Assembly: GCA_964526075.1 (NCBI GenBank) | Contig: CAZGIA010000004.1 | Location: 1 to 24,994 of the forward strand | Length of the DNA stretch: 24,994 bases | Reading direction: 5' to 3' | Origin: an uncultured Candidatus Saccharibacteria bacterium | GTDB lineage: Bacteria > Patescibacteriota > Minisyncoccia > Phycocordibacterales > Zambryskibacteraceae | Shown here: one piece after another, positions 3,051 to 18,257 of the stretch | How the letters are laid out: every line of letters starts with the position of its first letter | Numbering within the stretch: the stretch's first letter is position 1 | Translations under genes and position numbers: made by a program | The notes under the pieces: generated by a model | What the model was told of the DNA's origin: nothing | The model's input: only the letters and a program-made list of their open reading frames with translations | Database searches by the model: none

Positions 3051-3527
3051 ATGATAAAAATTTATACAGATGGTTCATCAAGAGGAAACCCTGGTCCGGG
3101 AGGCTGGGGGGCTATTGTCATGGACGGCATTCGTACAATTGAGTTGGGTGGTAGGGAAGATCACACCACCAACAATCGCATGGAACTTTCAGCTGCTATA
3201 AAAGCTTTGGAATTTGTATCCAAACTGTCTGCTGACAACTGTGTACTGTTTACTGATTCTGAGTATGTCATGAAGGGGATTACAGAATGGATTAAGGGTT
3301 GGCAATTGCGTGGTTGGAGAACAACAGCTAAGAAACCGGTTTTGAATCAAGATCTCTGGCAAGCGTTGGTTCTTGCTTCAGACGAGAAGAAAATTGAGTG
3401 GAAGTATGTGGCCGGACATTCGGGGCATGAATATAATGAACGTTGCGATGAGATTGCCACTTCTTTTGCCGATGATCTCAATATCACTCTCTATAATGGA
3501 GCAAGTTCAGATTACAAACTTTCTTAA
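3051..3527 (+). CDS. rnhA: Ribonuclease HI
   Basis: IYTDGSSRGNPGPGGWG, TTNNRMEL, TDSEYV, GHSGHEYNERCD. Confidence 0.96.
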   Translation: MIKIYTDGSSRGNPGPGGWGAIVMDGIRTIELGGREDHTTNNRMELSAAIKALEFVSKLSADNCVLFTDSEYVMKGITEWIKGWQLRGWRTTAKKPVLNQDLWQALVLASDEKKIEWKYVAGHSGHEYNERCDEIATSFADDLNITLYNGASSDYKLS

Positions 3528-4899
3528 TCCAGTTTTACTGTTTATCCTTAGTTTTGTAGGAGGCGTCTTTGTCTCTTCATTCTTTTTTCTACCACCACTA
3601 ATTTTCCTTTTGATACTCTTTGTTGCTGTAGCGATTACTGTTGTTGAAAAAGTTTGGTATGGGAAAGTCGGATCCGAAGTCCTGTTACTGGTATTGTTAT
3701 TAATTGCTTTTTCTCTTGGTTCTTTGCGTTATGCTGTCAAGGATTTTCATGAACTTCAGTTACCGACAGAGACTGGAGTGGTGGTGAGTGAACCAGAAGA
3801 CAAAGATAATGTTAGAAGATTTGTTTTCCTTGCTGATAATAACGAGAAAGTGTTAGTTTCTGCTCCTCTCTACCATCAAGTACAATACGGTGACAAGGTG
3901 AAAGTGTCTGGGAAATTTGAAAAACCCGGTTTAATCGAATCTGAAGATAGTAGTCGTCCGTTTGATTATGGAAAGTATCTAGCTAAGGATGATATTTATT
4001 ACACTTTGAGCTTTGCCAATGTTTTAGTACTTTCAAGCGGGCATGGCAATCCGATAAAAGCCACCCTTTTTAAGATTAAGAGAAATTTTGTTGAGCAGGC
4101 TAAAACTATTTTGGCTGAACCATATGCTAGCCTACTTATGGGTCTTGTGGTCGCAGGACGGGATGCCTTACCTGCAAATATTCTTGAGGAGTTTCGTCGG
4201 GCTGGAGTGATTCATATTGTAGTTCTTTCAGGATTCAATATCACACTTATTGCTGACTTTCTCAGGAAACTTTTTCAGAATTTTTTCCTACGTTTGGGTT
4301 GGGCTCGCTTTCAGCATGCTCCAGCTTTTGCTTCGATTGTGGGTGTGACCTTGTTTGTCATTATGACTGGTGGAGAAGCTACTGTAGTAAGAGCAGCCCT
4401 CATGGCTTTTACCGTCATTGTGGCAGGTCTGTTTGGTCGAAATTATTCTGCTCCACGGGCACTTCTTATGGCTGGTTTTCTAATGCTATTACAAAATCCG
4501 AAGATATTAGTTTTCGATCCCTCTTTCCAGCTTTCTTTCCTTGCTACTCTTGGTCTCATTTATCTTGTGCCCTTAGTCGGACAATGGATAAAATGGGTTA
4601 CAGAGAAGTGGGAAATTAAACAAACTTTGGCTCAAACTATTGCTACTCAAATAGCTGTTCTTCCACTACTTATCTATCTAGTCGGTGATGTCTCCTTGGT
4701 TTCTTTGCCAGCCAATCTTCTCATTCTTCTTATCGTACCGTACACTATGCTGGTTGGATTTCTGGCGGTAATTATTTCGTATGTGAGTGTTGTAATTGCT
4801 TGGCCAATCACTTTGGTAACTCATCTGTTGCTATCGTGGATTCTTTTTGTCTCGCACTTCTTGGGTTCTTTGTCGTTTGCTACTGTGAAGCTTTTTTAA
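3496..4899 (+). CDS. comEC: ComEC/Rec2 competence membrane protein (no MBL domain)
   Basis: Multi-TM protein with AGVIHIVVLSGFNI, VVRAALM, SFQLSFLATLG and ANLLIL. ATG 3496 was chosen over the ORF-track start 3373 to minimise overlap with rnhA; the start is uncertain. Confidence 0.88.
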   Translation: MEQVQITNFLNPVLLFILSFVGGVFVSSFFFLPPLIFLLILFVAVAITVVEKVWYGKVGSEVLLLVLLLIAFSLGSLRYAVKDFHELQLPTETGVVVSEPEDKDNVRRFVFLADNNEKVLVSAPLYHQVQYGDKVKVSGKFEKPGLIESEDSSRPFDYGKYLAKDDIYYTLSFANVLVLSSGHGNPIKATLFKIKRNFVEQAKTILAEPYASLLMGLVVAGRDALPANILEEFRRAGVIHIVVLSGFNITLIADFLRKLFQNFFLRLGWARFQHAPAFASIVGVTLFVIMTGGEATVVRAALMAFTVIVAGLFGRNYSAPRALLMAGFLMLLQNPKILVFDPSFQLSFLATLGLIYLVPLVGQWIKWVTEKWEIKQTLAQTIATQIAVLPLLIYLVGDVSLVSLPANLLILLIVPYTMLVGFLAVIISYVSVVIAWPITLVTHLLLSWILFVSHFLGSLSFATVKLF

Positions 4900-6305: not shown

Positions 6306-6343
6306 ATACGTTATAATGTCACTATCGTGAGTCAATAACGTAT
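6306..6343. repeat. 38-bp imperfect palindrome, copy 1 (overlaps -10 TATAAT 6312-6317 and ATG 6342)
   Basis: ATACGTTAT-AATG-TCAC-TATC-GTGA-GTCA-ATAACGTAT, with 9-bp perfect outer arms. Confidence 0.85.
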
Positions 6344-6908
6344 GGGTAAATTAGAAATAAGTAGTAGCAAAAAGACCAGAAATAACAATTTACAAAAATT
6401 GATTCTTGAGACCGTTTCTCTGGCAGGATTCATGAGTATTGCTCTCGTAGCACCGAATGTCCTGAAGTCAATGAATAAACTTGGTTTAATTCCTAATTTC
6501 AGACAGGAGGAATATATTGCGTCATCTGCCAGTAAATTAGCTAAGCGTGGCTTGCTTGTTTTCGATGGTAGGAAATATTGTTTAACTGCTACTGGTGAGA
6601 GCTTATTGCGTCGTTGGCAACTAAGTGATTTTAAAATTGAAAAGCCAAAAAGGTGGGATCGAAAGTGGCGCGTAATTATCTTTGATATTCCAGAGAAGAA
6701 AAGAAAGAGTCGCGATCAGATCAGAACCTTATTTAAATTAGCGGGATTCTATCTGTTGCAGGATAGCGTCTGGGTCTACCCGTATGAGTGTGAAGATATT
6801 CTTACCCTTCTTAAATCTGATTTAGGAGTAGGAAAGAATGTTCTCTATCTTATTGTCGATGAATTGGAAAATGATAAATATCTACGAGCATCATTTGGTC
6901 TTAAATAA
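6342..6908 (+). CDS. PaaX-like protein: winged-helix plus Cas2-like ferredoxin-fold domain
   Basis: wHTH-like SKLAKRGLLVFDGRKYCLTATG followed by WDRKWRVIIFDIPEKKRKSRDQIRTLFKLAGFYLLQDSVWVYPY, typical of the PaaX central/Cas2-like domain. Confidence 0.8.
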   Translation: MGKLEISSSKKTRNNNLQKLILETVSLAGFMSIALVAPNVLKSMNKLGLIPNFRQEEYIASSASKLAKRGLLVFDGRKYCLTATGESLLRRWQLSDFKIEKPKRWDRKWRVIIFDIPEKKRKSRDQIRTLFKLAGFYLLQDSVWVYPYECEDILTLLKSDLGVGKNVLYLIVDELENDKYLRASFGLK

Positions 6909-7875: not shown

Positions 7876-7904
7876 TTGACAAATATATAAAAAGGGTGTA
7901 TAGT
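7876..7904 (+). promoter_or_regulatory. sigma70-type promoter of cassette 1
   Basis: TTGACA-17-TATAGT; GGAGG at 7912-7916. Confidence 0.8.
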
Positions 7905-7920
7905 TATAGTTGGAGGCAAC

Positions 7921-8022
7921 ATGGACCAGTTCTTTACCGACTCGTGGCCGGAATGGTTGAAAAAGACCGTTCTGGTAGCGATCGTCGGTGGTCTGTTCAT
8001 GGCTATCGCCATGAATATCTGA
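7921..8022 (+). CDS. 33-aa single-TM ORFan ([33 protein letters not shown]), cassette 1
   Basis: Not in the ORF track. Has its own promoter, GGAGG SD and downstream hairpin; 51/102 GC by hand count. Confidence 0.7.
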
Positions 8023-8031
8023 CCACCAAAG

Positions 8032-8056
8032 AGGCCCCCTTCACAGGGGGCCTTTC
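8032..8056 (+). terminator. Hairpin terminator of cassette 1
   Basis: AGGCCCCCT-TCAC-AGGGGGCCT followed by TTCG; the U tract is short. Confidence 0.7.
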
Positions 8057-8065
8057 GTCATCTGG

Positions 8066-8094
8066 TTGCAAAAGGTCAAACCTTTTAGTAGAGT
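8066..8094 (+). promoter_or_regulatory. Promoter for rpsL-rpsG
   Basis: TTGCAA-17-TAGAGT. Confidence 0.65.
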
Positions 8095-8120
8095 GGGGGT
8101 CTCCATTTGGAGGATTTTTG

Positions 8121-8534
8121 ATGTCTACTATCAATCAACTCGTAAAGAGAAAAAGGGGAAAACTTAAGCGTAAGACCAAGGCGGTCGCTTTGACGCGGGG
8201 ATTCAATACTCTTAAAAATCGTCCAACCTTCTTCAACTCTCCCTTTAAACGTGGCGTAGCCACTAAGGTGACTACCAAGACTCCCAAGAAACCGAACTCC
8301 GCTATTCGTAAGATTGCTCGTGTACGTCTGACCAATGGTCTTGAAGTGACTGCTTATATTCCTGGTATTGGTCACAACCTTCAAGAACACTCAGTGGTGC
8401 TTCTTCGTGGTGGTCGTGTCAAAGACGTTGGTCTTCGTTACACTATTGTTCGTGGTGTGCTTGATGCTACTGGTGTGGAGACTCGTCGCCAGACACGTTC
8501 CCAGTATGGTGCTAAGAAGCCTAAAGGGAAATAA
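8121..8534 (+). CDS. rpsL: 30S ribosomal protein S12
   Basis: [42 protein letters not shown]. Start is ATG 8121 with GGAGG SD; the ORF-track extension to 7896 is spurious. Confidence 0.98.
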
Positions 8535-8563
8535 ACAATTTCCAATAAACAATAAACAAGCAA

Positions 8564-9034
8564 ATGAGACGCAAACTTAAAGCCAAGCCGAAAATTATCC
8601 CTGACGCAGTCTATGACTCCGAGAAGGTCACTAAGTTTATCAACTACACGATGCAGGAAGGGAAGAAGGTTACTGCTCGTAAGGTGGTTTATGATGCTCT
8701 TAATTTTATCAAAGAGAAAACCAAGAATGAAAATCCTCTTGAAGTTTTTGAAACTGCTCTCAAGAATACTGGCCCTACCATGGAAGTTCGTTCTCGTCGT
8801 GTTGGTGGTGCCAACTATCAAGTCCCTCGTGAGGTACGCCCAGAGAGACGTCAGATGCTTTCGATGACTTGGATTGTTGATGCCGCTCGTAGTAAGAAGG
8901 GTAAACCTATGCATGAGAAATTGGCAGAAGAAATTATCGCAGCTTCAAACAACGAAGGTGATGCCGTGAGAAAACGTGAGAACACTCACAAGATGGCAGA
9001 AGCCAACAAGGCGTTTGCACATTTTGCGTGGTAA
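8564..9034 (+). CDS. rpsG: 30S ribosomal protein S7
   Basis: [30 protein letters not shown]. Confidence 0.98.
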
Positions 9035-9053
9035 TCCCGCCATGGCGGGATTA
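9032..9053. repeat. Perfect 22-bp palindrome beginning at the rpsG stop codon
   Basis: TAATCCCGCCATGGCGGGATTA is its own reverse complement. Confidence 0.85.
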
Positions 9054-9072
9054 TCCTGAGCGTAGTCGAAGG
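9051..9072 (-). repeat. REP-like dispersed element, copy A
   Basis: TTATCCTGAGCGTAGTCGAAGG is the exact reverse complement of 15986-16007. Confidence 0.85.
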
Positions 9073-9097
9073 GTAGTTTAAAAACACCATGTTTAAG

Positions 9098-9122
9098 AAA
9101 AGAGCCCTTTAGGGGCTCTTTT
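9098..9122 (+). terminator. Intrinsic terminator after rpsG
   Basis: AAAAGAGCCC-TTTAG-GGGCTCTTTT. Confidence 0.8.
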
Positions 9123-9181
9123 CGTTTCCCCAAATTAAACATTTAAATATTGGAAAATTTAAATGGTGTTACCATTAATCT

Positions 9182-9661
9182 ATGGCAACAGTGCAAAGAT
9201 TTGAGGACTTGATGTGTTGGCAGAAGGCGAGAGAACTCACTCGCGAGGTGTATAAAAGTTTTAATACCTGCCGAGACCGAGGGTTTACTGACCAGATCCA
9301 ACGAGCGAGTGTTTCGGTTATGAGTAATATTTCCGAAGGATTTGAGAGTGGGACGCGAGAAATGTTTGTAAATTATCTCTATATTGCCAAGGGTTCTGCT
9401 GGGGAAGTTCGCGCACAACTTTATGCCGCATATGATATTGGCTATTTAAATATTGAAACATTTAAATATTTAAAGAATAAAGCGGAAGAATGTTCCAAAT
9501 TGCTAAACAGTTTTATCAAAGCGGTCAAAAGTTCACCGAATAGTGGTCTGCAGAGGAAAAAGGAGCTGACTAAACAAGAACAGGAGGCCGAAGCCTTCTC
9601 CACCTACGCCCAAAGCGAATTAGCCAAAGTTCACCCCAATATTTACGGTAAGAAATCTTAA
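9182..9661 (+). CDS. Four-helix-bundle protein (TIGR02436 / 23S rRNA-IVS protein family, Avd-like fold)
   Basis: FEDLMCWQKAREL..DQIQRASVSVMSNISEGF..YLYIAKGSAGEVRAQLYAAYDIGYL. Confidence 0.92.
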   Translation: MATVQRFEDLMCWQKARELTREVYKSFNTCRDRGFTDQIQRASVSVMSNISEGFESGTREMFVNYLYIAKGSAGEVRAQLYAAYDIGYLNIETFKYLKNKAEECSKLLNSFIKAVKSSPNSGLQRKKELTKQEQEAEAFSTYAQSELAKVHPNIYGKKS

Positions 9662-9684
9662 ATCTTTAAATTTTCTAATTCCTA

Positions 9685-9712
9685 TTGACTTTTATATAAA
9701 TCAGTGTATTAT
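9685..9712 (+). promoter_or_regulatory. Promoter of cassette 2
   Basis: TTGACT-16-TATTAT. Confidence 0.65.
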
Positions 9713-9795
9713 ATAGGTAACGTCGTTTCGTTCTTTTCAAGTAGGCAAGCGGGTTGCCGACGTTACCGCGGGTCCTGCAAAAAGAGGGTAGAGAA

Positions 9796-10128
9796 ATGAA
9801 GACTGTGATTTTGTCGCAAGAGCTGAGCGAGTTCAAGAAGGAGTTTGAAGATCTTGACTCGTCCAGCAAGATTTATCGAACCACCGCACACTCCCCGAAA
9901 AGCTCGTTCCATGAGACGTTCGTGACGGCCTCGAAGGACCTCCACCTGGAGTTCGGGCGCCTTTCCGAAGAGCTCAGGTGGGAGATCGCGGTACTCATCC
10001 GCAGGGAGCTGGACGAAACCGGCGGGGTGCTCCTCATGCGAGCAAGGAAGGATGCTTCCGTCGCTATCATGGCAACTCTGGCCAATGGGGATGATTCGTA
10101 CATTCATCTTTCGAAGGTCGGTACTTAA
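9796..10128 (+). CDS. 110-aa ORFan, cassette 2
   Basis: ATG 9796 follows purine-rich AGAGGG. Visibly GC-richer than its flanks; no family recognised. Confidence 0.65.
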   Translation: MKTVILSQELSEFKKEFEDLDSSSKIYRTTAHSPKSSFHETFVTASKDLHLEFGRLSEELRWEIAVLIRRELDETGGVLLMRARKDASVAIMATLANGDDSYIHLSKVGT

Positions 10129-10135
10129 GATTTTG

Positions 10136-10168
10136 GGCCCGGCGCGTACGCGCGCCGGGCCTTTCGTT
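10136..10168 (+). terminator. Hairpin terminator of cassette 2
   Basis: GGCCCGGCGCG-TACG-CGCGCCGGGCC followed by TTTCGTTT. Confidence 0.8.
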
Positions 10169-10196
10169 TGCCCAAAAAGACCTTTTCCTATATAGT
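10168..10196 (+). promoter_or_regulatory. Promoter for fusA
   Basis: TTGCCC-17-TATAGT. Confidence 0.65.
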
Positions 10197-10243
10197 TTTC
10201 CCTAACAAACCCCTTAGGGTTTTTATTATCCTTAATATTATTT

Positions 10244-12412
10244 ATGCAAAGAGATTATCCACTCGAGCGAGTTCGGAACTTCGGTATCATTGCTCATATT
10301 GATGCTGGGAAGACTACCACTTCCGAGCGAGTACTTTTCTATACTGGAGCACAACACAAGATTGGTGAGGTGCATGAAGGTGAGACTACTACCGATTGGA
10401 TGGAGCAGGAACGTGAACGTGGCATCACTATTACAGCAGCAGCTATTACTTGTTTCTGGGCTCCGACTTATATGTCGGATGAAGATCGTGCTAAAAAAGA
10501 GAACAAATATCGTTTTAACGTGATTGATACTCCTGGGCACATCGACTTTACTGTGGAGGTGAAGCGCTCTTTGCGTGTGCTTGATGGTGCGGTAGTAGTC
10601 TTTGACGGTGTAGCTGGAGTAGAGCCTCAATCTGAGACCAACTGGCGTTATGCTGAAGAGGCCTTGGTACCTAGAATTTGTTTTATCAATAAACTTGATC
10701 GTACAGGAGCTTCATTTGAACGTTCCTACCAATCCATCTTGAATCGTCTTTCTAAGAAAGCGGTGCGTCTACAACTTCCGATCGGTGAGGAAGAAAAACA
10801 TGAAGGGATTATCGATCTTTTGAAAATGAAGGCTTATTATTTTGAAGGTGAGATGGGAAATAAGGTCGTAGAGTCCGAGGTCCCCGAGGACTTAATCGCT
10901 GATGCCAAGAAGTATCGTGCAGAACTTGTGGAGCGCATTGTTGAGAATGACGATAGTATGATGAGCGATTACCTTGAAGGTAAAGTGTCTAGCGTTGAAG
11001 ATTTGAAAAAGGTTCTCCGTAAGGCGGTGATTGAAAACAAGGTCTTCCCAGTTATGGCTGGCTCAGCGCTTAAGAATAAGGGTGTTCAGCTTGTACTTGA
11101 TGCTGTGGTTGACTATCTTCCGTCTCCACTCGACATTCCTCCTATTAAAGGGACTCATCCTGAGACTGGGGAAGAAGTGATTCGTCATGCTTCAGACGAG
11201 GAACCTTTCTCCGCGTTGGCTTTCAAACTTCAGGCAGATCCGTTTGTTGGTCAACTCACTTTCTTCCGTGTGTATTCTGGCAAGATTGAGGCTGGTACCT
11301 ATATTTATAATTCTACTACTGCTACTAAGGAACGTCTTGGGCGTATCGTACGTCTCCAGGCAGATAAACGTGAGGAAGTGAAGGCGGTGTATGCGGGTGA
11401 GATAGCGGCGGCTGTTGGTTTGAAAGAAGCTAAAACCTCGCACACTTTCTGTGATGAAAATAATCCCATTGCTCTTGATCAGATTAAGTTCCCAGAACCA
11501 GTGATCTTTCTTCGTATTGAACCTAAGACCAAGGTTGATCAGGAGAAAATGGGTATGGCATTGAAGCGCCTTTCTGACGAAGATCCAACTTTCCGTATCA
11601 AGTCTGACGTAGAAACTGCTGAGACTGTGATCATGGGTATGGGGGAGCTTCATCTTGAGATTATTGTGGATCGTATGAAGCGTGAATTCGGAGTCGAGGC
11701 CAATGTCGGCAAACCTCAGGTGGCTTACAAAGAAACTATTCTTGGTGAAGCTGAAGTGGAAAACAAATATATCAAGCAAACTGGAGGTAAGGGTCAGTAC
11801 GGTCATGTCAAGATCAAGATCAAACCACTTCCGGCTTATGATCCAGAAGAGAAGATTCCTAAGAATGCTCACCGTGAGCCAGGTTTCGAATTCATTGATG
11901 CTATTAAGGGAGGTGTGGTTCCTCAGGAATTTATTCCAGCTGTTGAAAAGGGAATTAGAGAAGCCATGGATCGTGGTATTTTGGCAGGCTTTAAGATGGT
12001 AGATATTTCTGCTGAACTTAACTATGGTTCTTATCATGATGTGGACTCTTCCGAAATTGCTTACAAGATTGCTGCTTCTCAAGCCTTCCAAGAAGCGGCT
12101 CGCCGAGCGAAGCCCGTCCTCCTCGAGCCTATTATGAAAGTAGAAGTAGTCGTGCCGGAGAAATTCATGGGAGACATTACAGGGAATCTTTCCGGCAAGC
12201 GCGGCCAGATCGAAGCTATGGAAGATCGCGGTGACCTCAAGGTGGTGCGTGCCAAGGTGCCTCTCTCTGAGATGTTTGGTTATGTGACCTCACTCCGCTC
12301 TATGACTGAAGGTCGTGGTTCCTCTACTATGGAATTTGATCACTACGCGGTGGTGCCTACAAATGTGGCTACTGCTATCATCGAAGCTCGTACTGGTACG
12401 AAAGCTACTTAG
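10244..12412 (+). CDS. fusA: Elongation factor G
   Basis: RNFGIIAHIDAGKTTT, DWMEQERERGITI, DTPGH, NKLD, GMGELHLEI. Confidence 0.99.
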   Translation: MQRDYPLERVRNFGIIAHIDAGKTTTSERVLFYTGAQHKIGEVHEGETTTDWMEQERERGITITAAAITCFWAPTYMSDEDRAKKENKYRFNVIDTPGHIDFTVEVKRSLRVLDGAVVVFDGVAGVEPQSETNWRYAEEALVPRICFINKLDRTGASFERSYQSILNRLSKKAVRLQLPIGEEEKHEGIIDLLKMKAYYFEGEMGNKVVESEVPEDLIADAKKYRAELVERIVENDDSMMSDYLEGKVSSVEDLKKVLRKAVIENKVFPVMAGSALKNKGVQLVLDAVVDYLPSPLDIPPIKGTHPETGEEVIRHASDEEPFSALAFKLQADPFVGQLTFFRVYSGKIEAGTYIYNSTTATKERLGRIVRLQADKREEVKAVYAGEIAAAVGLKEAKTSHTFCDENNPIALDQIKFPEPVIFLRIEPKTKVDQEKMGMALKRLSDEDPTFRIKSDVETAETVIMGMGELHLEIIVDRMKREFGVEANVGKPQVAYKETILGEAEVENKYIKQTGGKGQYGHVKIKIKPLPAYDPEEKIPKNAHREPGFEFIDAIKGGVVPQEFIPAVEKGIREAMDRGILAGFKMVDISAELNYGSYHDVDSSEIAYKIAASQAFQEAARRAKPVLLEPIMKVEVVVPEKFMGDITGNLSGKRGQIEAMEDRGDLKVVRAKVPLSEMFGYVTSLRSMTEGRGSSTMEFDHYAVVPTNVATAIIEARTGTKAT

Positions 12413-12414
12413 TC

Positions 12415-12443
12415 TTGACTTTATTCCAAATTTTTAGTATTAA
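12415..12443 (+). promoter_or_regulatory. Probable promoter of cassette 3
   Basis: TTGACT-17-TATTAA (weak -10), starting 3 nt after the fusA stop; GGAGGT at 12473-12478. Confidence 0.5.
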
Positions 12444-12482
12444 ATAAGAAACTCAATTCAGAGCTGTTCTTGGGAGGTGCAC

Positions 12483-12620
12483 ATGGCAAACAACAACCCG
12501 CAAGATGAAGATCCTCGGCCACCGGCTCAGGACATCCCAGCTGATGACGGTCCAGACGACACGCCGTCCAGGGAGCAGGAGAACGACACTCCTGATCCGC
12601 CGGATCCGGACGACGAGTAG
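12483..12620 (+). CDS. 45-aa acidic Pro-rich ORFan (MANNNPQDEDPRPPAQDIPADDGPDDTPSREQENDTPDPPDPDDE), cassette 3
   Basis: Not in the ORF track. GGAGGT SD 4 nt before ATG; 84/138 GC by hand count; followed by a hairpin. Confidence 0.65.
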   Translation: MANNNPQDEDPRPPAQDIPADDGPDDTPSREQENDTPDPPDPDDE

Positions 12621-12637
12621 TTCCGGCGATGGGGGGC

Positions 12638-12665
12638 AAGGGGCAGGCTTTCGAGCCTGCCCTTT
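12638..12665 (+). terminator. Hairpin terminator of cassette 3
   Basis: GGGCAGGCT-TTCG-AGCCTGCCC followed by TTT; extends to 12 bp with one G.U pair. Confidence 0.75.
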
Positions 12666-12750
12666 ACAATTTATAGCCTTTTCTGTAATATGACGCCTAC
12701 GTGTAAACCGTGTCTTGCTCTTTGAGATTCTCTCAATAGTATCTATGGCT

Positions 12751-12825
12751 ATGGTTTATGCTTGTTTCGACGAAGTCCGCTTACTGTGGACGGAGGCGGA
12801 TGTGTTCTGAACCTTAAAAAACCAT
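12751..12825 (+). ncRNA. Candidate structured 5' leader of the tuf-rpsJ operon
   Basis: Closing helix ATGGTTT 12751-57 / AAACCAT 12819-25; internal GTCCGC-TTACT-GTGGAC hairpin; upstream TTGCTC-16-TAGTAT promoter at 12715-12742. Confidence 0.45.
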
Positions 12826-12924
12826 TCGACTTGACTTATGGCAGGCAAGTTTCTCGCGCGCTTTTTTAGTTTCAGGAACAACTTCGCAACTTATTAAACT
12901 TATCTAACTTATTAAACTAAATTT

Positions 12925-14115
12925 ATGGCAGAATTTGATCGAAGTAAGCCCCATGTAAACGTGGGCACCATTGGTCACGTTGACCATGGCAAAACCACCT
13001 TGACCGCCGCTATCTTGAATGTGCTTAACCGCGCAGGCAAGAAGGCTACCGTCAAGAACGTAGACCAGATTGACAATTCACCGGAGGAAAAGGCTCGTGG
13101 TATTACCATCGCGCTCTCACACTCTGAGTATGAGACTGATGCTCGTCACTATGCTCACGTCGATGCTCCTGGTCACGCAGATTACATTAAGAACATGATT
13201 ACCGGTGCTGCTCAGATGGACGGTGCTATCCTCGTGGTAGCCGCTACTGATGGTGTGATGCCTCAAACTCGTGAACACATTCTTCTCGCCAAACAGGTAG
13301 GAGTGCCAAAGATTATTGTCTTCCTCAACAAATGCGATATGGTGGGAGATAAGGAGTTGATTGGTTTGGTCGAAGAGGAAGTCAGAGATCTTCTCAAGAA
13401 GTATGATTACGATGGTGAAAATGCTCCAGTTATCCAAGGTTCAGCTCTGAAGGCTCTTGAAGCTTCTGGAGTTGATGACGAGTGGTCTAAGCAAATCATT
13501 GCTCTCACTGATGCTCTTGACACTTATATCCCTCAGCCTGTACGTGAACTTGATAAACCCTTCCTTATGCCAGTTGAAGATGTTTTCTCTATTGAAGGTC
13601 GAGGTACAGTAGTGACTGGCCGTATCGAGAGAGGCATTATTAAGGTTGGTGAGGAAGTAGAAATTATCGGTATTAAGGATACAGTGAAAACTACTGTGAC
13701 TGGTATCGAAATGTTCAACAAATCTCTACAACAGGGTGAAGCTGGAGACAATGCAGGTATTCTTCTCCGTGGTGTGAAGAAAGAAGATCTTCATCGTGGT
13801 CAAGTACTTGCAAAGACGGGTTCGATCAAGCCACATACTGACTTCGTTGCCGAAGTCTATGTTCTTAAGAAGGAAGAAGGTGGTCGCCACACTCCTTTTT
13901 TCACTGGCTACAAACCTCAGTTTTATATCGGTACTACCGATGTAACTGGTGAGGTGACTCTTGCAGAAGGAGTAGAGATGATTATGCCTGGTGATACAGC
14001 TACCTTCAATGTTAAGCTCGTGGTTCCTGTTGCCCTTGAGGATCAGCGTCGTTTCGCTATCCGTGAAGGTGGAAAAACTGTCGGTGCCGGAGTCGTCACT
14101 AAGATTGTTGCCTAA
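12925..14115 (+). CDS. tuf: Elongation factor Tu
   Basis: [45 protein letters not shown]. Confidence 0.99.
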
Positions 14116-14474
14116 TGTCTAAGCCTACTGCTCCAAAGAAGAAAGCTCCTAAGAAAGCTGTTGAAGCAGTGAGCCGACTTCGTATCCGCGTGCGAGCATA
14201 CGAATCCAAGATTCTAGACCTTTCGGTCAAACAGATCATGGATACAGCGCTTCGCTATGACGCAATGGTAGAGGGTCCCATCCCTCTACCAACTGAGAAG
14301 AAAATCTATACCGTGAATCGTGCACCATTCGTATACAAGAATGCGCGAGAACAGTTCGAGATGCGAATTCATAAACGACTCATAGATATAGTCAATCCTT
14401 CTCCCAAGGTGATTGAATCACTAACTAATCTTTCCCTACCTTCTGGCGTTAACATTGACGTCAAGATGATTTAG
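14115..14474 (+). CDS. rpsJ: 30S ribosomal protein S10
   Basis: RLRIRVRAYESKILD..GPIPLPT..REQFEMRIHKRLIDI, with a Lys/Ala-rich N-terminal extension. Confidence 0.97.
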   Translation: MSKPTAPKKKAPKKAVEAVSRLRIRVRAYESKILDLSVKQIMDTALRYDAMVEGPIPLPTEKKIYTVNRAPFVYKNAREQFEMRIHKRLIDIVNPSPKVIESLTNLSLPSGVNIDVKMI

Positions 14475-14500
14475 TTTGATTCATCACTACAAGTAGTAAC

Positions 14501-14959
14501 ATGGACAAAATTCGAGCTAAAAAAGAAAATATGACCCAGATCTTTGCTGAAAACGGCGAAGTCTTCGCTGTCACTCTACTGAAGCTCGTTGATGCCAAAG
14601 GTCAGACCTTAAGTACTGATTCCCAAGGTCTGACCTTGAAAGAGGGAGATGTCGTCACAGTTTCTGGTATCACCAAGGGTAAGGGCTTCCAAGGCGTAAT
14701 TAAGCGACATGGGTTTAAGGGAGGTCGACGTTCTCATGGTCAGAAACATTCTGAACGTGAAGCTGGTTCGATCGGTGGAGGTGGTCGCGCTGGAGGTCGT
14801 GTTGCTAAGGGCATGCGCATGGCTGGTCGCATGGGTGGAAGTAAGACCAGTGTGAAGAATCTTAGAGTGGTGAAGGTGCTCCCAGAAACTGGTGAGGTCT
14901 TCATCTCTGGAGCAGTGCCAGGAAGAAGGGGAACTAAGCTTGAAATCAAGAACCAGTAG
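14501..14959 (+). CDS. rplC: 50S ribosomal protein L3 (short, 152 aa)
   Basis: MTQIF..VTVSGITKGKGFQGVIKRHGF..RMAGRMG..GAVPG. Confidence 0.95.
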   Translation: MDKIRAKKENMTQIFAENGEVFAVTLLKLVDAKGQTLSTDSQGLTLKEGDVVTVSGITKGKGFQGVIKRHGFKGGRRSHGQKHSEREAGSIGGGGRAGGRVAKGMRMAGRMGGSKTSVKNLRVVKVLPETGEVFISGAVPGRRGTKLEIKNQ

Positions 14960-14987
14960 TTCTATGGCGATCACTACAAGTAAAAAC

Positions 14988-15686
14988 ATGGAAGCAAACA
15001 TCTATAGCTTAGAAGGAAAGAAAGCAGGTAACATTACTTTGCCAAAGAATATTTTTGGTCTGGAATGGAATGCTGATTTGGTCAAACAGGTGGCGGATTC
15101 TCTCATATCTTCGATTAGAAAGAATATTGCACATAGTAAGAATCGTGCGGAAGTGGCTGGTGGCGGCAAGAAACCATGGCAACAGAAGGGGACTGGTCGT
15201 GCGCGTCACGGTTCCATTCGTTCACCTATCTGGCGTCATGGTGGAGTCACTCATGGTCCACGTTCGGACAAGAATTTCCTTCGTGTTGTTTCGAAGAAGA
15301 TGAGGATAAAGGCGCTTTATACTATTCTCTCTAGAAAGTTTAAAGAAGGTGAAGTTCTTTTCCTCGATGCTATGACGCTTCCAGAAAATAAGACCAAGTC
15401 TGCGGTGCTTGCGCTCAATACTCTTTCCAAGGTTAAAGGTTTCAACTACGTCTTCTCTAAAAAGAAGAATGCTACCGTCATTGCTCTAGCGAAGAAAAAT
15501 AAGGTTCTTGAAAATGCTTTCTCCAACCTTGGCAATGTAGAAGTGATTGAGGCACGTAACCTAAGTCCACTTATCTTACTTAAATATAAGTATTTGATCT
15601 TCGAGAATCCTGATGTATCCTTGAAGTCTCTTCCTAAGCTTGCTACTCCCAAAGCTAGAAGCAAGAAGCTAGCAGCTAATACCTAG
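14988..15686 (+). CDS. rplD: 50S ribosomal protein L4
   Basis: KNRAEVAGGGKKPWQQKGTGRARHGSIRSPIWRHGGVTHGP. Start is 14988 (alternative 14964). Confidence 0.96.
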   Translation: MEANIYSLEGKKAGNITLPKNIFGLEWNADLVKQVADSLISSIRKNIAHSKNRAEVAGGGKKPWQQKGTGRARHGSIRSPIWRHGGVTHGPRSDKNFLRVVSKKMRIKALYTILSRKFKEGEVLFLDAMTLPENKTKSAVLALNTLSKVKGFNYVFSKKKNATVIALAKKNKVLENAFSNLGNVEVIEARNLSPLILLKYKYLIFENPDVSLKSLPKLATPKARSKKLAANT

Positions 15687-15690
15687 TCCA

Positions 15691-15984
15691 ATGACCAACA
15701 CCAACATCAAAGCAGAAAATGTGCTCCTTCGTGCCCATGTTACTGAGAAGGCAGCTCTTTCTGCAGATCGCTCTGGTGTCTACGTCTTTGACGTGAGTGA
15801 GAACTCCAACAAGACTTCGATTGCAGCTTCAGTGAAGGCGGTGTACAAAGTTACTCCAGTCAAGGTTCGTGTGACCAAGATTATGCCGAAAGCTGTTTTC
15901 GTTCGTGGAAAAAGGGGAGTAAAGAAGGGGGGTAAGAAGGCATACGTTTACCTTAAGAAAGGGGACAAGATTGAGTTAATTTAA
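15691..15984 (+). CDS. rplW: 50S ribosomal protein L23
   Basis: HVTEKA..YVFDVSENSNKTSI..KKAYVYLKKG. Confidence 0.95.
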   Translation: MTNTNIKAENVLLRAHVTEKAALSADRSGVYVFDVSENSNKTSIAASVKAVYKVTPVKVRVTKIMPKAVFVRGKRGVKKGGKKAYVYLKKGDKIELI

Positions 15985-15985
15985 T

Positions 15986-16007
15986 CCTTCGACTACGCTC
16001 AGGATAA
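15986..16007 (+). repeat. REP-like dispersed element, copy B
   Basis: CCTTCGACTACGCTCAGGATAA, 1 nt after the rplW stop. Confidence 0.85.
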
Positions 16008-16022
16008 ATTTTCAAGAAATTT

Positions 16023-16862
16023 ATGAAAAAATATAAACCCACCAGTAAGTCTCGTCGCAGCATGACCGGAATCAATTTCCGAAAACTTTTGAGTGGGAAT
16101 AAACCTGAGAAATCTCTTACGAAAGGTTTCCGCCGTGGTTCTGGTAGAAATCAATCAGGCAAGGTTACAACTCGTCATAAGGGAGGAGGGCATAAGAGAA
16201 CTTTTCGAAATGTAGATTTTTTCTATAACAAATATGATATTCCTTTTACAATTAAAACCGTTGAATACGATCCCAATCGTTCAGGCTTTATAGGTATTGC
16301 ACAATATGCTGATGGTGAGAAACGCTACGTTCTCCTCCATAACACAGCCCAAATTGGTGACACTTATATAGTTTCTGAGAAGGCGAATTCCACTCCGGGG
16401 AATCGTATGCCACTTGGCAATATGCTTGTTGGTACCTTCATCTACAATATTGAGTTGAAACATAAGGGTGGTGCCAAAATTGCTCGTTCCTCCGGCGATT
16501 ATGCTGAACTTCTAGCCAAGGATGGTGGTTATGTAGATATCAAACTTCCTTCATCTGAAGTGAGAAAGGTTCCAGCCAATGCTTGGGCATCTATTGGTGA
16601 AGTTTCTAACAACGAAAACAGATTGGTCAATCTCGGCAAAGCAGGTCGTTCACGTTGGCTTGGTATTCGTCCTACTGTTCGTGGTACTGCTCAGAATCCG
16701 GTAGATCATCCACATGGAGGAGGTGAAGGTAGGCAGGGTAGAGGTCGTCGTCGTGCGATCTCAGTTTATGGTAAACCGACCGGTAAGGGTCAGAAGTCTC
16801 GCCGAGCCAAGAAATATTCAAATAAGTTTATAGTCCGAAGGAGAAAAGTGGGCAAAAAATAA
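16023..16862 (+). CDS. rplB: 50S ribosomal protein L2
   Basis: EYDPNRS, PTVRGTAQNPVDHPHGGGEGR. Confidence 0.98.
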   Translation: MKKYKPTSKSRRSMTGINFRKLLSGNKPEKSLTKGFRRGSGRNQSGKVTTRHKGGGHKRTFRNVDFFYNKYDIPFTIKTVEYDPNRSGFIGIAQYADGEKRYVLLHNTAQIGDTYIVSEKANSTPGNRMPLGNMLVGTFIYNIELKHKGGAKIARSSGDYAELLAKDGGYVDIKLPSSEVRKVPANAWASIGEVSNNENRLVNLGKAGRSRWLGIRPTVRGTAQNPVDHPHGGGEGRQGRGRRRAISVYGKPTGKGQKSRRAKKYSNKFIVRRRKVGKK

Positions 16863-16997
16863 AAAGAATTCAATTTTTTTACCTCGCGATAATTCTCTGC
16901 TGAGAATTTCGCTTTTGAGGCCATGAGAAGTCATATTATGACTCCTCATCTTGTGAAAGGCGCGAAAATCAACCTTCTTTTTACTTGTGTAGAGCTA

Positions 16998-17026
16998 TTG
17001 ACTATTTTAAATAAAGTTTGTATAGT
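16998..17026 (+). promoter_or_regulatory. Promoter of cassette 4
   Basis: TTGACT-17-TATAGT; GAGG at 17053-17056. Confidence 0.8.
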
Positions 17027-17061
17027 AAAAATAGACGCGAATTTTAGGAATTGAGGCACAT

Positions 17062-17391
17062 ATGACGATGACAAGGGAAGAATTTCTCAACCTGGTTCAG
17101 GAGGCGGTCGAAATCGTTGATGGAGGCCAAACGGACGAGGAGGATAAAAAGAACGAGAACGATGAGCTGTGGGACGACAACGGAAAGTTGCATGGGGGCT
17201 TCTACGCCGCTTCTGAAAGGGCCGCCAGAGAAGTAGGTCTCCCAGTCACGGAAGAGAAGGGAGATCTGGTGGTCCTGGCTATCTATTGGCGGCAGGAGGA
17301 CGCTTTGTTTGGAGAAGAAGGCCCTTCTTTGAAGCTTCCAGATCTGATTCGCCATATCGATGCGGCGTGGGAGCACATGCAGAAACTCTAG
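17062..17391 (+). CDS. 109-aa acidic ORFan, cassette 4
   Basis: Has its own promoter, SD and terminator; about 26 D/E versus 11 K/R; no family recognised. Confidence 0.72.
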   Translation: MTMTREEFLNLVQEAVEIVDGGQTDEEDKKNENDELWDDNGKLHGGFYAASERAAREVGLPVTEEKGDLVVLAIYWRQEDALFGEEGPSLKLPDLIRHIDAAWEHMQKL

Positions 17392-17401
17392 TTCTTCATC
17401 T

Positions 17402-17427
17402 GGGCGGACCATCGCGGTCCGCCCTTT
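17402..17427 (+). terminator. Hairpin terminator of cassette 4
   Basis: GGGCGGACC-ATCGC-GGTCCGCCC followed by TTT. Confidence 0.75.
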
Positions 17428-17460
17428 GCATATGTAGATACAATGTATATACTTATGTAT

Positions 17461-17697
17461 ATGACTACTAAGCTGAAAAGGTGGGGCAATAGTTATGGTA
17501 TTCGCGTACCTAAGAGCGAAGCTAAAAGATTGGGTATAAAAGAAGGTAGCCCAGTTAAATTTAATATCGAGCTCGTAAAGAAAAGAAAATATACCCTAGA
17601 GGAACTTGTGGCTCAAATTAATCCCAAAAATAGACACCCACTAATTGACTGGGGGCCTGATGTGGGTAACGAAATCTTACCTGAATGGAAAGAGTAA
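17461..17697 (+). CDS. mazE: AbrB/MazE family antitoxin
   Basis: TKLKRWGNSYGIRVPK..KYTLEELVAQINP..IDWGPDVGNE. Starts at ATG 17461, 7 nt after TATACT. Confidence 0.93.
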   Translation: MTTKLKRWGNSYGIRVPKSEAKRLGIKEGSPVKFNIELVKKRKYTLEELVAQINPKNRHPLIDWGPDVGNEILPEWKE

Positions 17698-18023
17698 AAT
17701 ATATTCCTGAGCGAGGTGATATTGTGAAGTTAAATTTAGGCCCCACCAGAGGTCACGAGCAGAGCGGCTACAGGCCTTTTGTAATTTTGTCTCGCTCAAT
17801 TTTTAATATGAATGGCGGGCATACCATTGGATGTCCGATTACTTCTAGAATCAGACATGACCCATTTGAAACACTCATAAATACATCAAGTGTTAAGGGT
17901 GTGATTTTAATTGATCAGATCCGTACAATTGACTATCTTTCTCGCAAGGTTAAGTATGTCTGCAAATGTCCGCCAGAAGTTCTATATGAAGTTACATCAA
18001 AACTAGAAACCTTAATCCATTAG
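17685..18023 (+). CDS. mazF: PemK/MazF family endoribonuclease toxin
   Basis: YIPERGDIVKLNLGPTRGHEQSGYRPFVILS..CPITS..DQIRTID; overlaps the antitoxin by 13 nt. Confidence 0.94.
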   Translation: MERVKYIPERGDIVKLNLGPTRGHEQSGYRPFVILSRSIFNMNGGHTIGCPITSRIRHDPFETLINTSSVKGVILIDQIRTIDYLSRKVKYVCKCPPEVLYEVTSKLETLIH

Positions 18024-18127
18024 TTGCCGAGCTAAGAAATATTCCAACAAGTTTATTGTTTCAAGACGCAAGGTTGGGAAGAGGAAATAAGATAAGAGAT
18101 TCAATGGAATTAAGATTTTTTGGTATC

Positions 18128-18156
18128 TTGCATTTTTTTTGTAAACCTTGTAAGGT
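18128..18156 (+). promoter_or_regulatory. Promoter for rplJ-rplL
   Basis: TTGCAT-17-TAAGGT. Confidence 0.6.
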
Positions 18157-18171
18157 ATCCTTCGTAAGGTC

Positions 18172-18206
18172 AAAGATAAGAGGCAAACATAAGTCCTCTT
18201 GAGATC
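18172..18206 (+). ncRNA. Probable L10 leader (autoregulatory kink-turn mimic)
   Basis: AAAGAT-AAGAGG-caaacataagt-CCTCTT-GAGATC upstream of rplJ; AGA..stem..UAA..stem..GAG layout resembles known L10 leaders. Confidence 0.6.
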
Positions 18207-18257
18207 AGAATTCCTTCTTTCCTTATATGTATCTTTTACTAATTAATAGTAACTTTG

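Follow-up and report, generated by a model that had tools for sequence, protein, structure and literature searches.

Gene content and architecture of the locus

We describe four short open reading frames (ORFs), ORFan1 to ORFan4, which lie between translation genes of an uncultured Candidatus Saccharibacteria bacterium (assembly GCA_964526075.1). The window, by which we mean the whole stretch of DNA analysed, covers positions 1 to 24,994 of contig C4 (CAZGIA010000004.1) of a metagenome-assembled genome (MAG) of 0.46 Mb with 42% G+C in 45 contigs; the records of its relatives carry the label Candidatus Paceibacteria. Operons for ribosomal proteins and elongation factors are classic cases of rigid blocks whose genes are transcribed together. 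On the plus strand the gene order here is M50 peptidase, rpsL, rpsG, a 23S rRNA intervening-sequence (23S-IVS)/Avd-like gene, fusA, tuf, rpsJ, a short rplC, rplD, rplW, rplB, mazE, mazF, rplJ and rplL. The four ORFs occupy the gaps M50-rpsL (slot 1), rpsG-fusA (slot 2), fusA-tuf (slot 3) and rplB-rplJ (slot 4).

Judged by its predicted signals, each short ORF belongs to a self-contained, moron-like unit (cassettes 1 to 4): a sigma-70-type promoter and a GGAGG-type site precede it, and a GC-rich, terminator-like hairpin follows. Promoters and terminators were assigned by inference at the sequence level throughout. As shown in Table 1, the four units of promoter, Shine-Dalgarno (SD)-like site, ORF and GC hairpin proposed in the initial annotation of this DNA are borne out, and its term 'moron-like' for insulated units agrees with their own predicted promoters and terminators and their non-host composition. 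Its layout of cassette 2 holds for promoter, ORF and hairpin and is corrected in one point, a conserved leader of 83 nucleotides (nt) between promoter and ORF. Cassette promoters are the three top sigma-70 matches across 19 kb.

The genome was scanned for a strict form of this architecture, defined as TTGAC[AT]-N16-18-TAnnnT, followed within 150 nt by an SD-like site and an ORF of at least 30 amino acids (aa), and then by a GC-rich hairpin with a T tail and a perfect stem of 8 bp or more. This form occurs six times, with three occurrences inside the window, and was found in none of 40 simulated Markov-1 genomes, so the architecture is enriched over the simulations. Promoter, SD-like site and ORF together occur 14 times, where the simulated genomes give 1.9 +/- 1.2. 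Taken alone, the promoter motif is not enriched (40 in the genome, 36.6 simulated).

The ORFs had been noted as GC-richer than the host genes, and this is so: their G+C content at third codon positions (GC3) is 0.62 to 0.71, against a mean of 0.38 (standard deviation 0.06, 99th percentile 0.57) for 246 long host ORFs. GC3 exceeds GC2 in 4 of the 4 ORFs, as is typical of true coding sequence. The coding status of ORFan3 is the least certain of the four. None of the four ORFs had a match in Pfam or PHROGs.

Chimeric assembly or binning might be suspected in a MAG of 45 contigs with runs of N. The stretches 14594-17445 and 10691-14623 recur, with 0-3 differences, in Logan contigs assembled independently from another study's runs, and the cassettes are not assembly chimeras because these contigs span the junctions. 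Cassettes 1 and 2 are also seen in L034, which comes from a separate sample. An artefact of this kind is refuted by the matching contigs, and we give it practically no weight.

Table 1. Positions of the predicted features of the four slots (window coordinates) and of a repeat found elsewhere in the genome (contig coordinates).
Feature	Position	Strand	Remarks
Cassette 1 promoter TTGACA-17-TATAGT	7876-7904	+	best promoter match of the region, 11/12; 3 nt past M50 peptidase stop
SD-like GGAGG of cassette 1	7912-7916	+	
ORFan1, 33 aa, single-pass membrane microprotein	7921-8022	+	GC3 0.71
Hairpin 1, 9-bp stem then TTCGTC, terminator-like	8032-8053	+	
Native rpsL promoter TTGCAA-17-TAGAGT	8066-8094	+	TTGCA[AT]-17-TA[GC]AGT conserved in empty-gap relatives
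rpsG terminator hairpin, then TTTTCGTTTCCCCAAA	9098-9134	+	left copy of 15/17 direct repeat
23S-rRNA-IVS/Avd-like four-helix-bundle gene, 159 aa	9182-9661	+	Pfam PF05635, E = 1e-33
Cassette 2 promoter TTGACT-16-TATTAT	9685-9712	+	near-identical in L034; conserved in L033 and L080
ORFan2 5' leader, 83 nt	9713-9795	+	stem GGTAACGTCG/CGACGTTACC; alternative fold sequesters SD
ORFan2, 110 aa	9796-10128	+	GC3 0.70; un-named family, mostly about 110-135 aa
Hairpin 2, 11-bp all-GC stem then TTTCG	10136-10161	+	
fusA promoter TTGCCC-17-TATAGT	10168-10196	+	present in G020 (empty site), L034 and L080
Cassette 3 promoter TTGACT-17-TATTAA	12415-12443	+	2 nt past fusA stop
SD-like GGGAGGTG of cassette 3	12472-12479	+	
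ORFan3, 45 aa, acidic, Pro-rich, low-complexity	12483-12620	+	GC1/2/3 0.76/0.43/0.63
Hairpin 3, 9-bp stem	12641-12662	+	end abuts native tuf -35
Native tuf promoter TTTACA-17-TAATAT	12663-12691	+	aligns with TTGACT-17-TAACAT and leader of empty-gap relatives
tuf leader, roughly 230 nt, genus-conserved	12692-12924	+	motif CTTTGAGATT(A/C)TCTCAATA; no Rfam match
AT-rich spacer of slot 4	16863-16997	+	
Cassette 4 promoter TTGACT-17-TATAGT	16998-17026	+	
SD-like GAGG of cassette 4	17053-17056	+	
ORFan4, 109 aa	17062-17391	+	GC3 0.62
Hairpin 4	17402-17424	+	homologous to rplB terminator of allele without ORFan4
TTGCAT-16-TATACT promoter and mazE/mazF toxin-antitoxin pair	17426-18023	+	further slot 4 cargo
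REP-like repeat copies	G000:C1:6568, 7274, 28327, 28782, 53339; C2:9763, 38251		

Slot content in related genomes

For the synteny comparison, 20 loci from 18 same-genus genomes were annotated with the proteins of the window, and L033, L034 and L080 were compared additionally; whole-genome six-frame searches covered 36 congeners. Gene order is identical in 20 of the 20 loci, rplJ-rplL after rplB included. The four gaps range from 30 to 976 nt (M50-rpsL), 6 to 1635 nt (rpsG-fusA), 154 to 2008 nt (fusA-tuf) and 111 to 2040 nt (rplB-rplJ), and the remaining gaps are short. None of the four ORFs is present in the 20 loci. The slots of the relatives hold nothing, or MNT/HEPN, HigB/ParE or MazEF pairs, Cas2/PaaX-like genes, Avd-like genes, a YkuD transpeptidase and many ORFans. 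When all inserts were compared with one another, homologues were always found in the same gap and no family in two gaps.

We place somewhat better than even confidence in the reading that the four units represent accessory genes that occupy fixed slots at the transcription-unit boundaries of a translation-gene supercluster, their content being exchanged by transformation and homologous recombination as in hotspots of the 'minimal mobile element' type. DNA would be taken up from related, mostly GC-richer strains (comEC lies at 3373-4899 of the window, and recA is present in the genome) and would recombine through the highly conserved flanks rpsL, rpsG, fusA, tuf and rplB. Slot turnover would then need no cassette-specific machinery, and imprecise events would occasionally leave flank-gene fragments or junction repeats. 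Natural competence has been reported in the Candidate Phyla Radiation (CPR)/Patescibacteria, and horizontal gene transfer in Patescibacteria is reported to favour tuf, rpsL and genes for ribosomal proteins (PMC10187176, PMC12455944). On such a reading, the joints of otherwise rigid ribosomal and elongation-factor blocks would serve as swap sites for accessory genes in ultra-small bacteria. Genomes of about 0.5 Mb without visible mobile elements could still renew their genes, with their most conserved genes as recombination anchors.

The initial annotation had placed a TTGC promoter behind each cassette as part of the pattern and had concluded that the cassettes fragment the str operon. The TTGC sites of rpsL, fusA and mazE are present, but the TTGCTC assigned to tuf, at 12716, lies inside the tuf leader, and the native tuf promoter is a different one (Table 1). 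Native promoters of rpsL, tuf and rplJ occur in relatives with empty gaps and are not cassette-linked, tuf having a promoter and conserved leader of its own in every species; the fusA promoter alone moves together with an insert. The cluster is thus not fragmented by the inserts but was already modular, because tuf, rpsL and rplJ have their own promoters at empty gaps. In the empty-gap species the native rplJ promoter is TTGCAT-17-TAAAGT with a conserved leader behind it, and the promoter of cassette 3 takes the position of the native tuf -35 box of such relatives. The cassettes sit between a stop codon or predicted terminator and the next native promoter, which would be the only permissive places, where expression of the essential genes is left undisturbed.

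Slot 1 is an old slot, common to at least six species. A homologous promoter, TTGACA..gggtgTAT(A/G)(G/A)T, was found in the window, L034, G016, G019 and G012 (five of the six genomes compared), and in G005 just its -10 part remains. Each of the six continues with a GGAGG-type site and a gene for a small, very divergent single-pass membrane protein, after which come a GC hairpin and the native promoter of rpsL. L034 carries a 33-aa homologue of ORFan1 at the identical site and retains hairpin 1 with a different stem sequence; small divergent transmembrane proteins fill the slot in G005, G016, G019 and G012. The proportion of synonymous differences (pS) between ORFan1 and its L034 homologue is 0.79, a divergence equal to that of core genes.

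These observations also suit a different explanation, in which the ORFs are old residents, lineage-specific and fast-evolving, inherited vertically with many losses, their GC3 and GGAGG sites kept by selection or by GC-biased gene conversion at joints prone to recombination, and no lateral import occurred. The homologous promoter, GGAGG and small membrane protein shared by six species, the saturated pS of ORFan1, the insert families that never change slot and the ORFan2 family, which shows a wide range of divergence and lies after rpsG in 5 of 8 contigs, are all in its favour. The synteny check proposed with the initial annotation gave the same gaps with different cargo, but slot 1 and the ORFan2 family turned out to be old and shared rather than recent drops.

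Cassette 2 speaks for exchange. The tract from its -35 box (9683) to the first fusA codons (about 10300), which spans the leader, ORFan2, the hairpin and the fusA promoter, is about 90% identical to L034, the closest relative, against a baseline of 75-80%, with 87-95% identity in its non-coding parts. The core genes on either side are synonymously saturated (pS 0.65-0.76; 0.72-0.76 for the adjoining rpsG and fusA), while pS of ORFan2 is 0.33, about half the divergence of its neighbours. Resident genes would not be expected to show such a contrast, nor the duplicated pieces of fusA at two slot borders. In L080 the cassette 2 unit is followed by a 12-codon fusA 5' fragment and hairpin before the resident fusA (about 3170-3250), and in G018 (L025:6060-6161) a HigB/ParE pair lies between the 3' end of fusA and an 82% copy of the final 34 codons of that gene. 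We read these fusA fragments as probable scars of recombination through the flank. On balance the old-resident explanation is unlikely, though it keeps the greatest weight after exchange between fixed slots.

The fusA promoter occurs only in lineages that have, or once had, an insert, and moves with cassette 2; in many species rpsG and fusA are merely 6-9 nt apart. A 15/17 direct repeat, equal to the junction of terminator tail and fusA -35 box (right copy 10159-10175), brackets the IVS protein (Avd-like) gene together with cassette 2, and G020, where the site is empty, has hairpin-TTTTTGTTTGCCCAAAAA there. Relative to L034, which lacks it, the Avd-like gene is a separate insert in the rpsG-fusA gap (about 9113-9682), and it is found in the same slot in G013 and L080. 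In three genomes ATTTAAAT(A/C)TTT-type repeats lie on both sides of this gene (window 9137-9151 and 9658-9672; L022; L080), which suggests that it moves as a module of its own.

Homologues of ORFan2 occupy the rpsG-fusA gap in L034 (94% identity), L033 (71%) and G047 (29%). A profile search at E <= 1e-3 gave 184 cluster representatives without a Pfam family. Relatives of ORFan2 were found only in related small-genome contigs; 5 of the 8 contexts examined were directly downstream of rpsG and 3 were elsewhere. The six-frame search of the 36 congeners gave one weak match, again after rpsG. Divergence from L034 (dN/dS, nonsynonymous over synonymous, 0.036/0.437) indicates that ORFan2 is a working protein gene, because it is under purifying selection. 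The AlphaFold2 (AF2) model of ORFan2 (predicted local distance difference test, pLDDT, 76) had no significant Foldseek match in the PDB or the AlphaFold Database clusters (template modelling score < 0.5), and a search of the ESM Atlas returned only un-named clusters with scores under a useful level.

The leader of ORFan2 is far better conserved than the protein. It is kept in five genomes (window 9713-9795, L034:2881-2965, L033:5918-6003, L037:1290-1374 and L048:3838-3916) whose proteins are 23-93% identical, and it is non-coding because its reading frame is not conserved. In L048 one stem pair is altered on both sides. The RNAalifold fold and the manual stem are each plausible and mutually exclusive, and their energies are unexceptional (z -1.8 to +1.1), so that the structure is tentative; the leader may be an autoregulatory RNA. 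Hairpin 2 shows a compensatory stem change in L033, from G-C to A-T.

At slot 4, presence and absence alleles coexist, because contigs of related strains in the same samples skip ORFan4, or ORFan4 with mazEF. Contigs in runs X2 and X4 join the rplB stop at 16862 to 17416, giving a natural allele without the segment 16863-17401. At this junction, the sole readable one, 16 other letters rebuild the hairpin and there is no target duplication. A contig of run X5 joins 16823 to 18052 and so has neither ORFan4 nor mazEF. The hairpin of cassette 4 is present as the initial annotation had it, but its homologue is the rplB terminator when ORFan4 is absent, so it may be the resident rplB terminator rather than part of the cassette. 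No homologue of ORFan4 was found among 5.8 billion proteins, nor in the six-frame search of the 36 congeners; its AF2 model is helical and of low confidence (pLDDT 65). The label ORFan thus fits ORFan4 but not ORFan2, with its family so often found after rpsG.

The further cargo of slot 4 is a type II toxin-antitoxin pair, with adjacent MazE (PF04014, E = 4e-8) and PemK/MazF (PF02452, E = 2e-26) domains; among the 20 loci it is present in G010 only. The start of mazE is probably at 17461, 7 nt past the -10 box, a near-leaderless geometry.

In other species slot 3 holds unrelated cargo of 100-200 nt behind a conserved promoter. ORFan3 gave no tblastn match in the 20 genus loci; protein databases were not searched for it. 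A shared small RNA as the cargo of slot 3 was rejected, since the transcribed segments of this slot in the window and in four relatives could not be aligned with one another. The tuf leader is a candidate cis-regulatory RNA.

The initial annotation had proposed a system that drops cassettes into highly transcribed loci, possibly beside promoters. Such a system could work by integron-like site-specific recombination or, like the promoter-early stem-loop (PeSL) elements, by recombination between conserved promoter and stem-loop modules. Several features would fit such a dedicated system: terminator hairpins run straight into -35 boxes at every border, conserved promoters at slots 1 and 3 are followed by unrelated cargo in different species, and the 15/17 repeat brackets two inserts of slot 2. 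Pfam scans of the window genes between 7249 and 19890 and of the slot genes of the relatives, however, found neither an integrase or transposase nor attC within the slots or close to them, in agreement with what the annotation itself had remarked. Compared pair by pair, the cassette borders share words of at most 11 nt, a length that shuffles also reach (mean 9.8, maximum 12), no family sits at two slots, and the ORFan4 junction lacks a target duplication. No tRNA gene that could serve as an integration target was found in the window. A mobilising system of this kind is hardly credible on these results.

Composition, Shine-Dalgarno sites and the source of the units

Core-gene GC3 among related genomes ranges from 0.37 to 0.78, with the closest relative at about 0.6. 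Imports from congeners would look GC3-rich here because this genome lies at the AT-rich end of that range. Genes resident for long should have tracked the shift of the genome to GC3 0.38, which counts against the old-resident explanation. Two classes of insert can be told apart across the genus: GC3-rich ones that have an SD-like site, and AT-rich ones, mostly toxin-antitoxin genes, that have none. A general GC enrichment of genus inserts was rejected (mean insert-core GC3 difference -0.04); only the SD-led subclass is GC3-rich. Raised GC3 in slot-proximal gene ends was seen at fusA 3', tuf 5' and rpsL 5' and was absent at rplB 3' and fusA 5', and was not used as evidence.

Other GC3-rich, SD-led ORFans bracketed by promoter and terminator are located upstream of rplU, close to rplY and ahead of tsaE-polA. 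When three such ORFs were searched against the 36 congeners, those of 274 aa and 108 aa had no match and that of 133 aa matched two. That ORFan4 and the 274-aa and 108-aa ORFs all lack a homologue in these congeners is again not what old residents would lead one to expect.

The 3' tail of the 16S rRNA, GGAGUAAUUCAAUU (G000:C8:1124-1175; L058-L076), is invariant in this genome and 18 congeners and has no CCUCC anti-SD core; the spacer just downstream of it varies freely. This tail fits the anti-SD loss reported in about half of Parcubacteria (PMC9297842). The host genes, described in the initial annotation as mostly SD-less, gave no SD signal; in many of them a -10 box immediately precedes the start codon, and among the 6-mers found within 22 nt upstream of start codons TATAAT is the most frequent (41 of 294 genes). 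An SD-like site precedes 8% of all ORFs, against a background of roughly 10% estimated by hand from base composition. ORFs of this genome with GC3 of at least 0.55 are enriched for such sites (odds ratio 5.5, p = 4e-4). Altered pairing with the unusual 16S tail was rejected, as words complementary to it are found upstream of starts at 0.344 compared with 0.327 after shuffling. These data raise the puzzle of what role canonical Shine-Dalgarno motifs have where the 16S rRNA cannot pair.

A further explanation of the cassettes would be direct import from unrelated, GC-richer SD-users, whether the bacterial host of the episymbiont, other bacteria or phages, with illegitimate integration at permissive sites. 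GGAGG sites and GC3 of 0.62-0.81 in a genus without anti-SD, whose own SD-like motifs stay at a background of 8-12%, would follow naturally, and the GC3-rich, SD-led insert of G002 is an ordinary bacterial YkuD L,D-transpeptidase. Such donors would scarcely leave ORFan4 without a homologue among 5.8 billion proteins, nor ORFan2 with relatives only in related small-genome contigs. No PHROG match and no phage genes nearby were found, and the promoters are of host type, common to the SD-less AT-rich ORFs of the genome. We regard import from unrelated bacteria or phages as improbable, more so than long residence.

Several points weigh against exchange between fixed slots as the full account. Direct evidence of recent exchange concerns cassette 2 only, where it consists of the contrast in synonymous divergence and the identity tract, with the fusA scars in L080 and G018. 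For cassettes 1, 3 and 4 no donor or tract was identified; for cassette 3, no congener was unusually similar in the flanking fusA 3' or tuf 5' segments. ORFan1 keeps a GC3 of 0.71 despite its core-like divergence from L034, which import from an L034-like strain fails to explain. Congeners cannot be the only source, because some SD-led inserts of relatives have GC3 of 0.77-0.81, above that of any core gene seen in the genus. At slot 1, GGAGG is conserved among species that have no CCUCC in the 16S tail, a hint of selection outside the model. The function of promoters and terminators is itself read from the letters.

The GGAGG sites of the cassettes would be either continually renewed relics of SD-using donors or signals that act in another way. 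In the latter case the GGAGG-led, GC3-rich cassettes might form a separate expression class, read by a protein, by another rRNA site or by a condition-specific or foreign apparatus, or built for expression in another cell such as the bacterial host of the episymbiont. The slots would then be an 'expression dock', a conserved promoter and GGAGG with exchangeable cargo. We consider this idea a long shot, on a level with a dedicated mobilising system.

Exchange between fixed slots also draws attention to a class of lineage-restricted small proteins with strong predicted expression, such as the family of 184 representatives with its conserved leader and the membrane microproteins of the slot before rpsL. 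Such proteins are likely to be relevant to an episymbiotic lifestyle.

Comparison with known systems and neighbouring features

Phage morons of the HK97/HK022 type are extra genes between conserved neighbours, with their own promoter and terminator and atypical GC content (PMC3594210). Like them, all four ORFs are single genes within their own predicted promoter and terminator, in extra DNA of atypical composition between genes adjacent in relatives, which would imply a horizontal origin. Unlike morons, they lie in a cellular chromosome flanked by rpsL, rpsG, fusA, tuf and rplB and have no PHROG match; they are also GC-richer than their host and carry SD-like sites in a host without anti-SD.

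By definition, the minimal mobile elements of Neisseria (Saunders and Snyder 2002), like other hotspots of gene transfer flanked by core genes, are variable genes between conserved flanks, exchanged by transformation and homologous recombination (PMC3787668). The slots resemble them in their variable content between the same conserved flanks in close relatives and in having no mobility genes and no specific end sequences. They differ in that the flanks are the most conserved translation genes, with slots of 0-2 kb inside an elsewhere rigid operon block, and in that each cargo gene is a predicted insulated transcription unit in an ultra-small CPR host.

PeSL cassettes of T4-type phages contain repeated, mutually similar, inter-recombining motifs (PMC2839356). 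ORFans between strong sigma-70 promoters fused to GC-rich stem-loop terminators, with modular, varying content, are common to both. The borders here, in contrast, are no more alike than shuffles, with the exception of the 15/17 junction repeat, and no family changes slot. With integron cassettes the units share the arrangement of single genes in tandem at a fixed place; they differ by lacking an integrase, attI and attC, by hairpins of differing sequence and by having their own promoters and terminators.

Rfam searches of the window and of the loci of five relatives gave nothing at the gathering score or at E <= 1. In the window (18127-18254), the rplJ promoter TTGCAT..TAAGGT has behind it a leader that contains GTAAGGTCAAAGATAAGAGGCA...CCTTAT. 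This leader is conserved in all relatives, with the consensus CATAAGGTCAAAGACAAG...GGCCTTAT, and resembles the L10 leader, which Rfam does not detect here.

Upstream of the M50 peptidase gene lies a PaaX/Cas2-like gene (6342-6908), which is variable and present in 8 of the 19 loci that cover the region. In G023, and likewise in the P0005 contig, a homologous domain is found as cargo of a slot.

A palindromic repeat resembling repetitive extragenic palindromic (REP) elements, (TG)TCC[CG]GAGGGT[CG]ACCCTC[CG]GGA(CA), occurs in at least seven copies (Table 1) and is unrelated to the cassette hairpins. At G000:C5:8128-10500 (L043:2629-5008), a 196-aa ORFan with GC3 of 0.75 and a Gly/Trp/Tyr-rich C-terminus adjoins a 121-aa ORF and a reverse transcriptase gene (RVT_1), a layout that resembles a diversity-generating retroelement.

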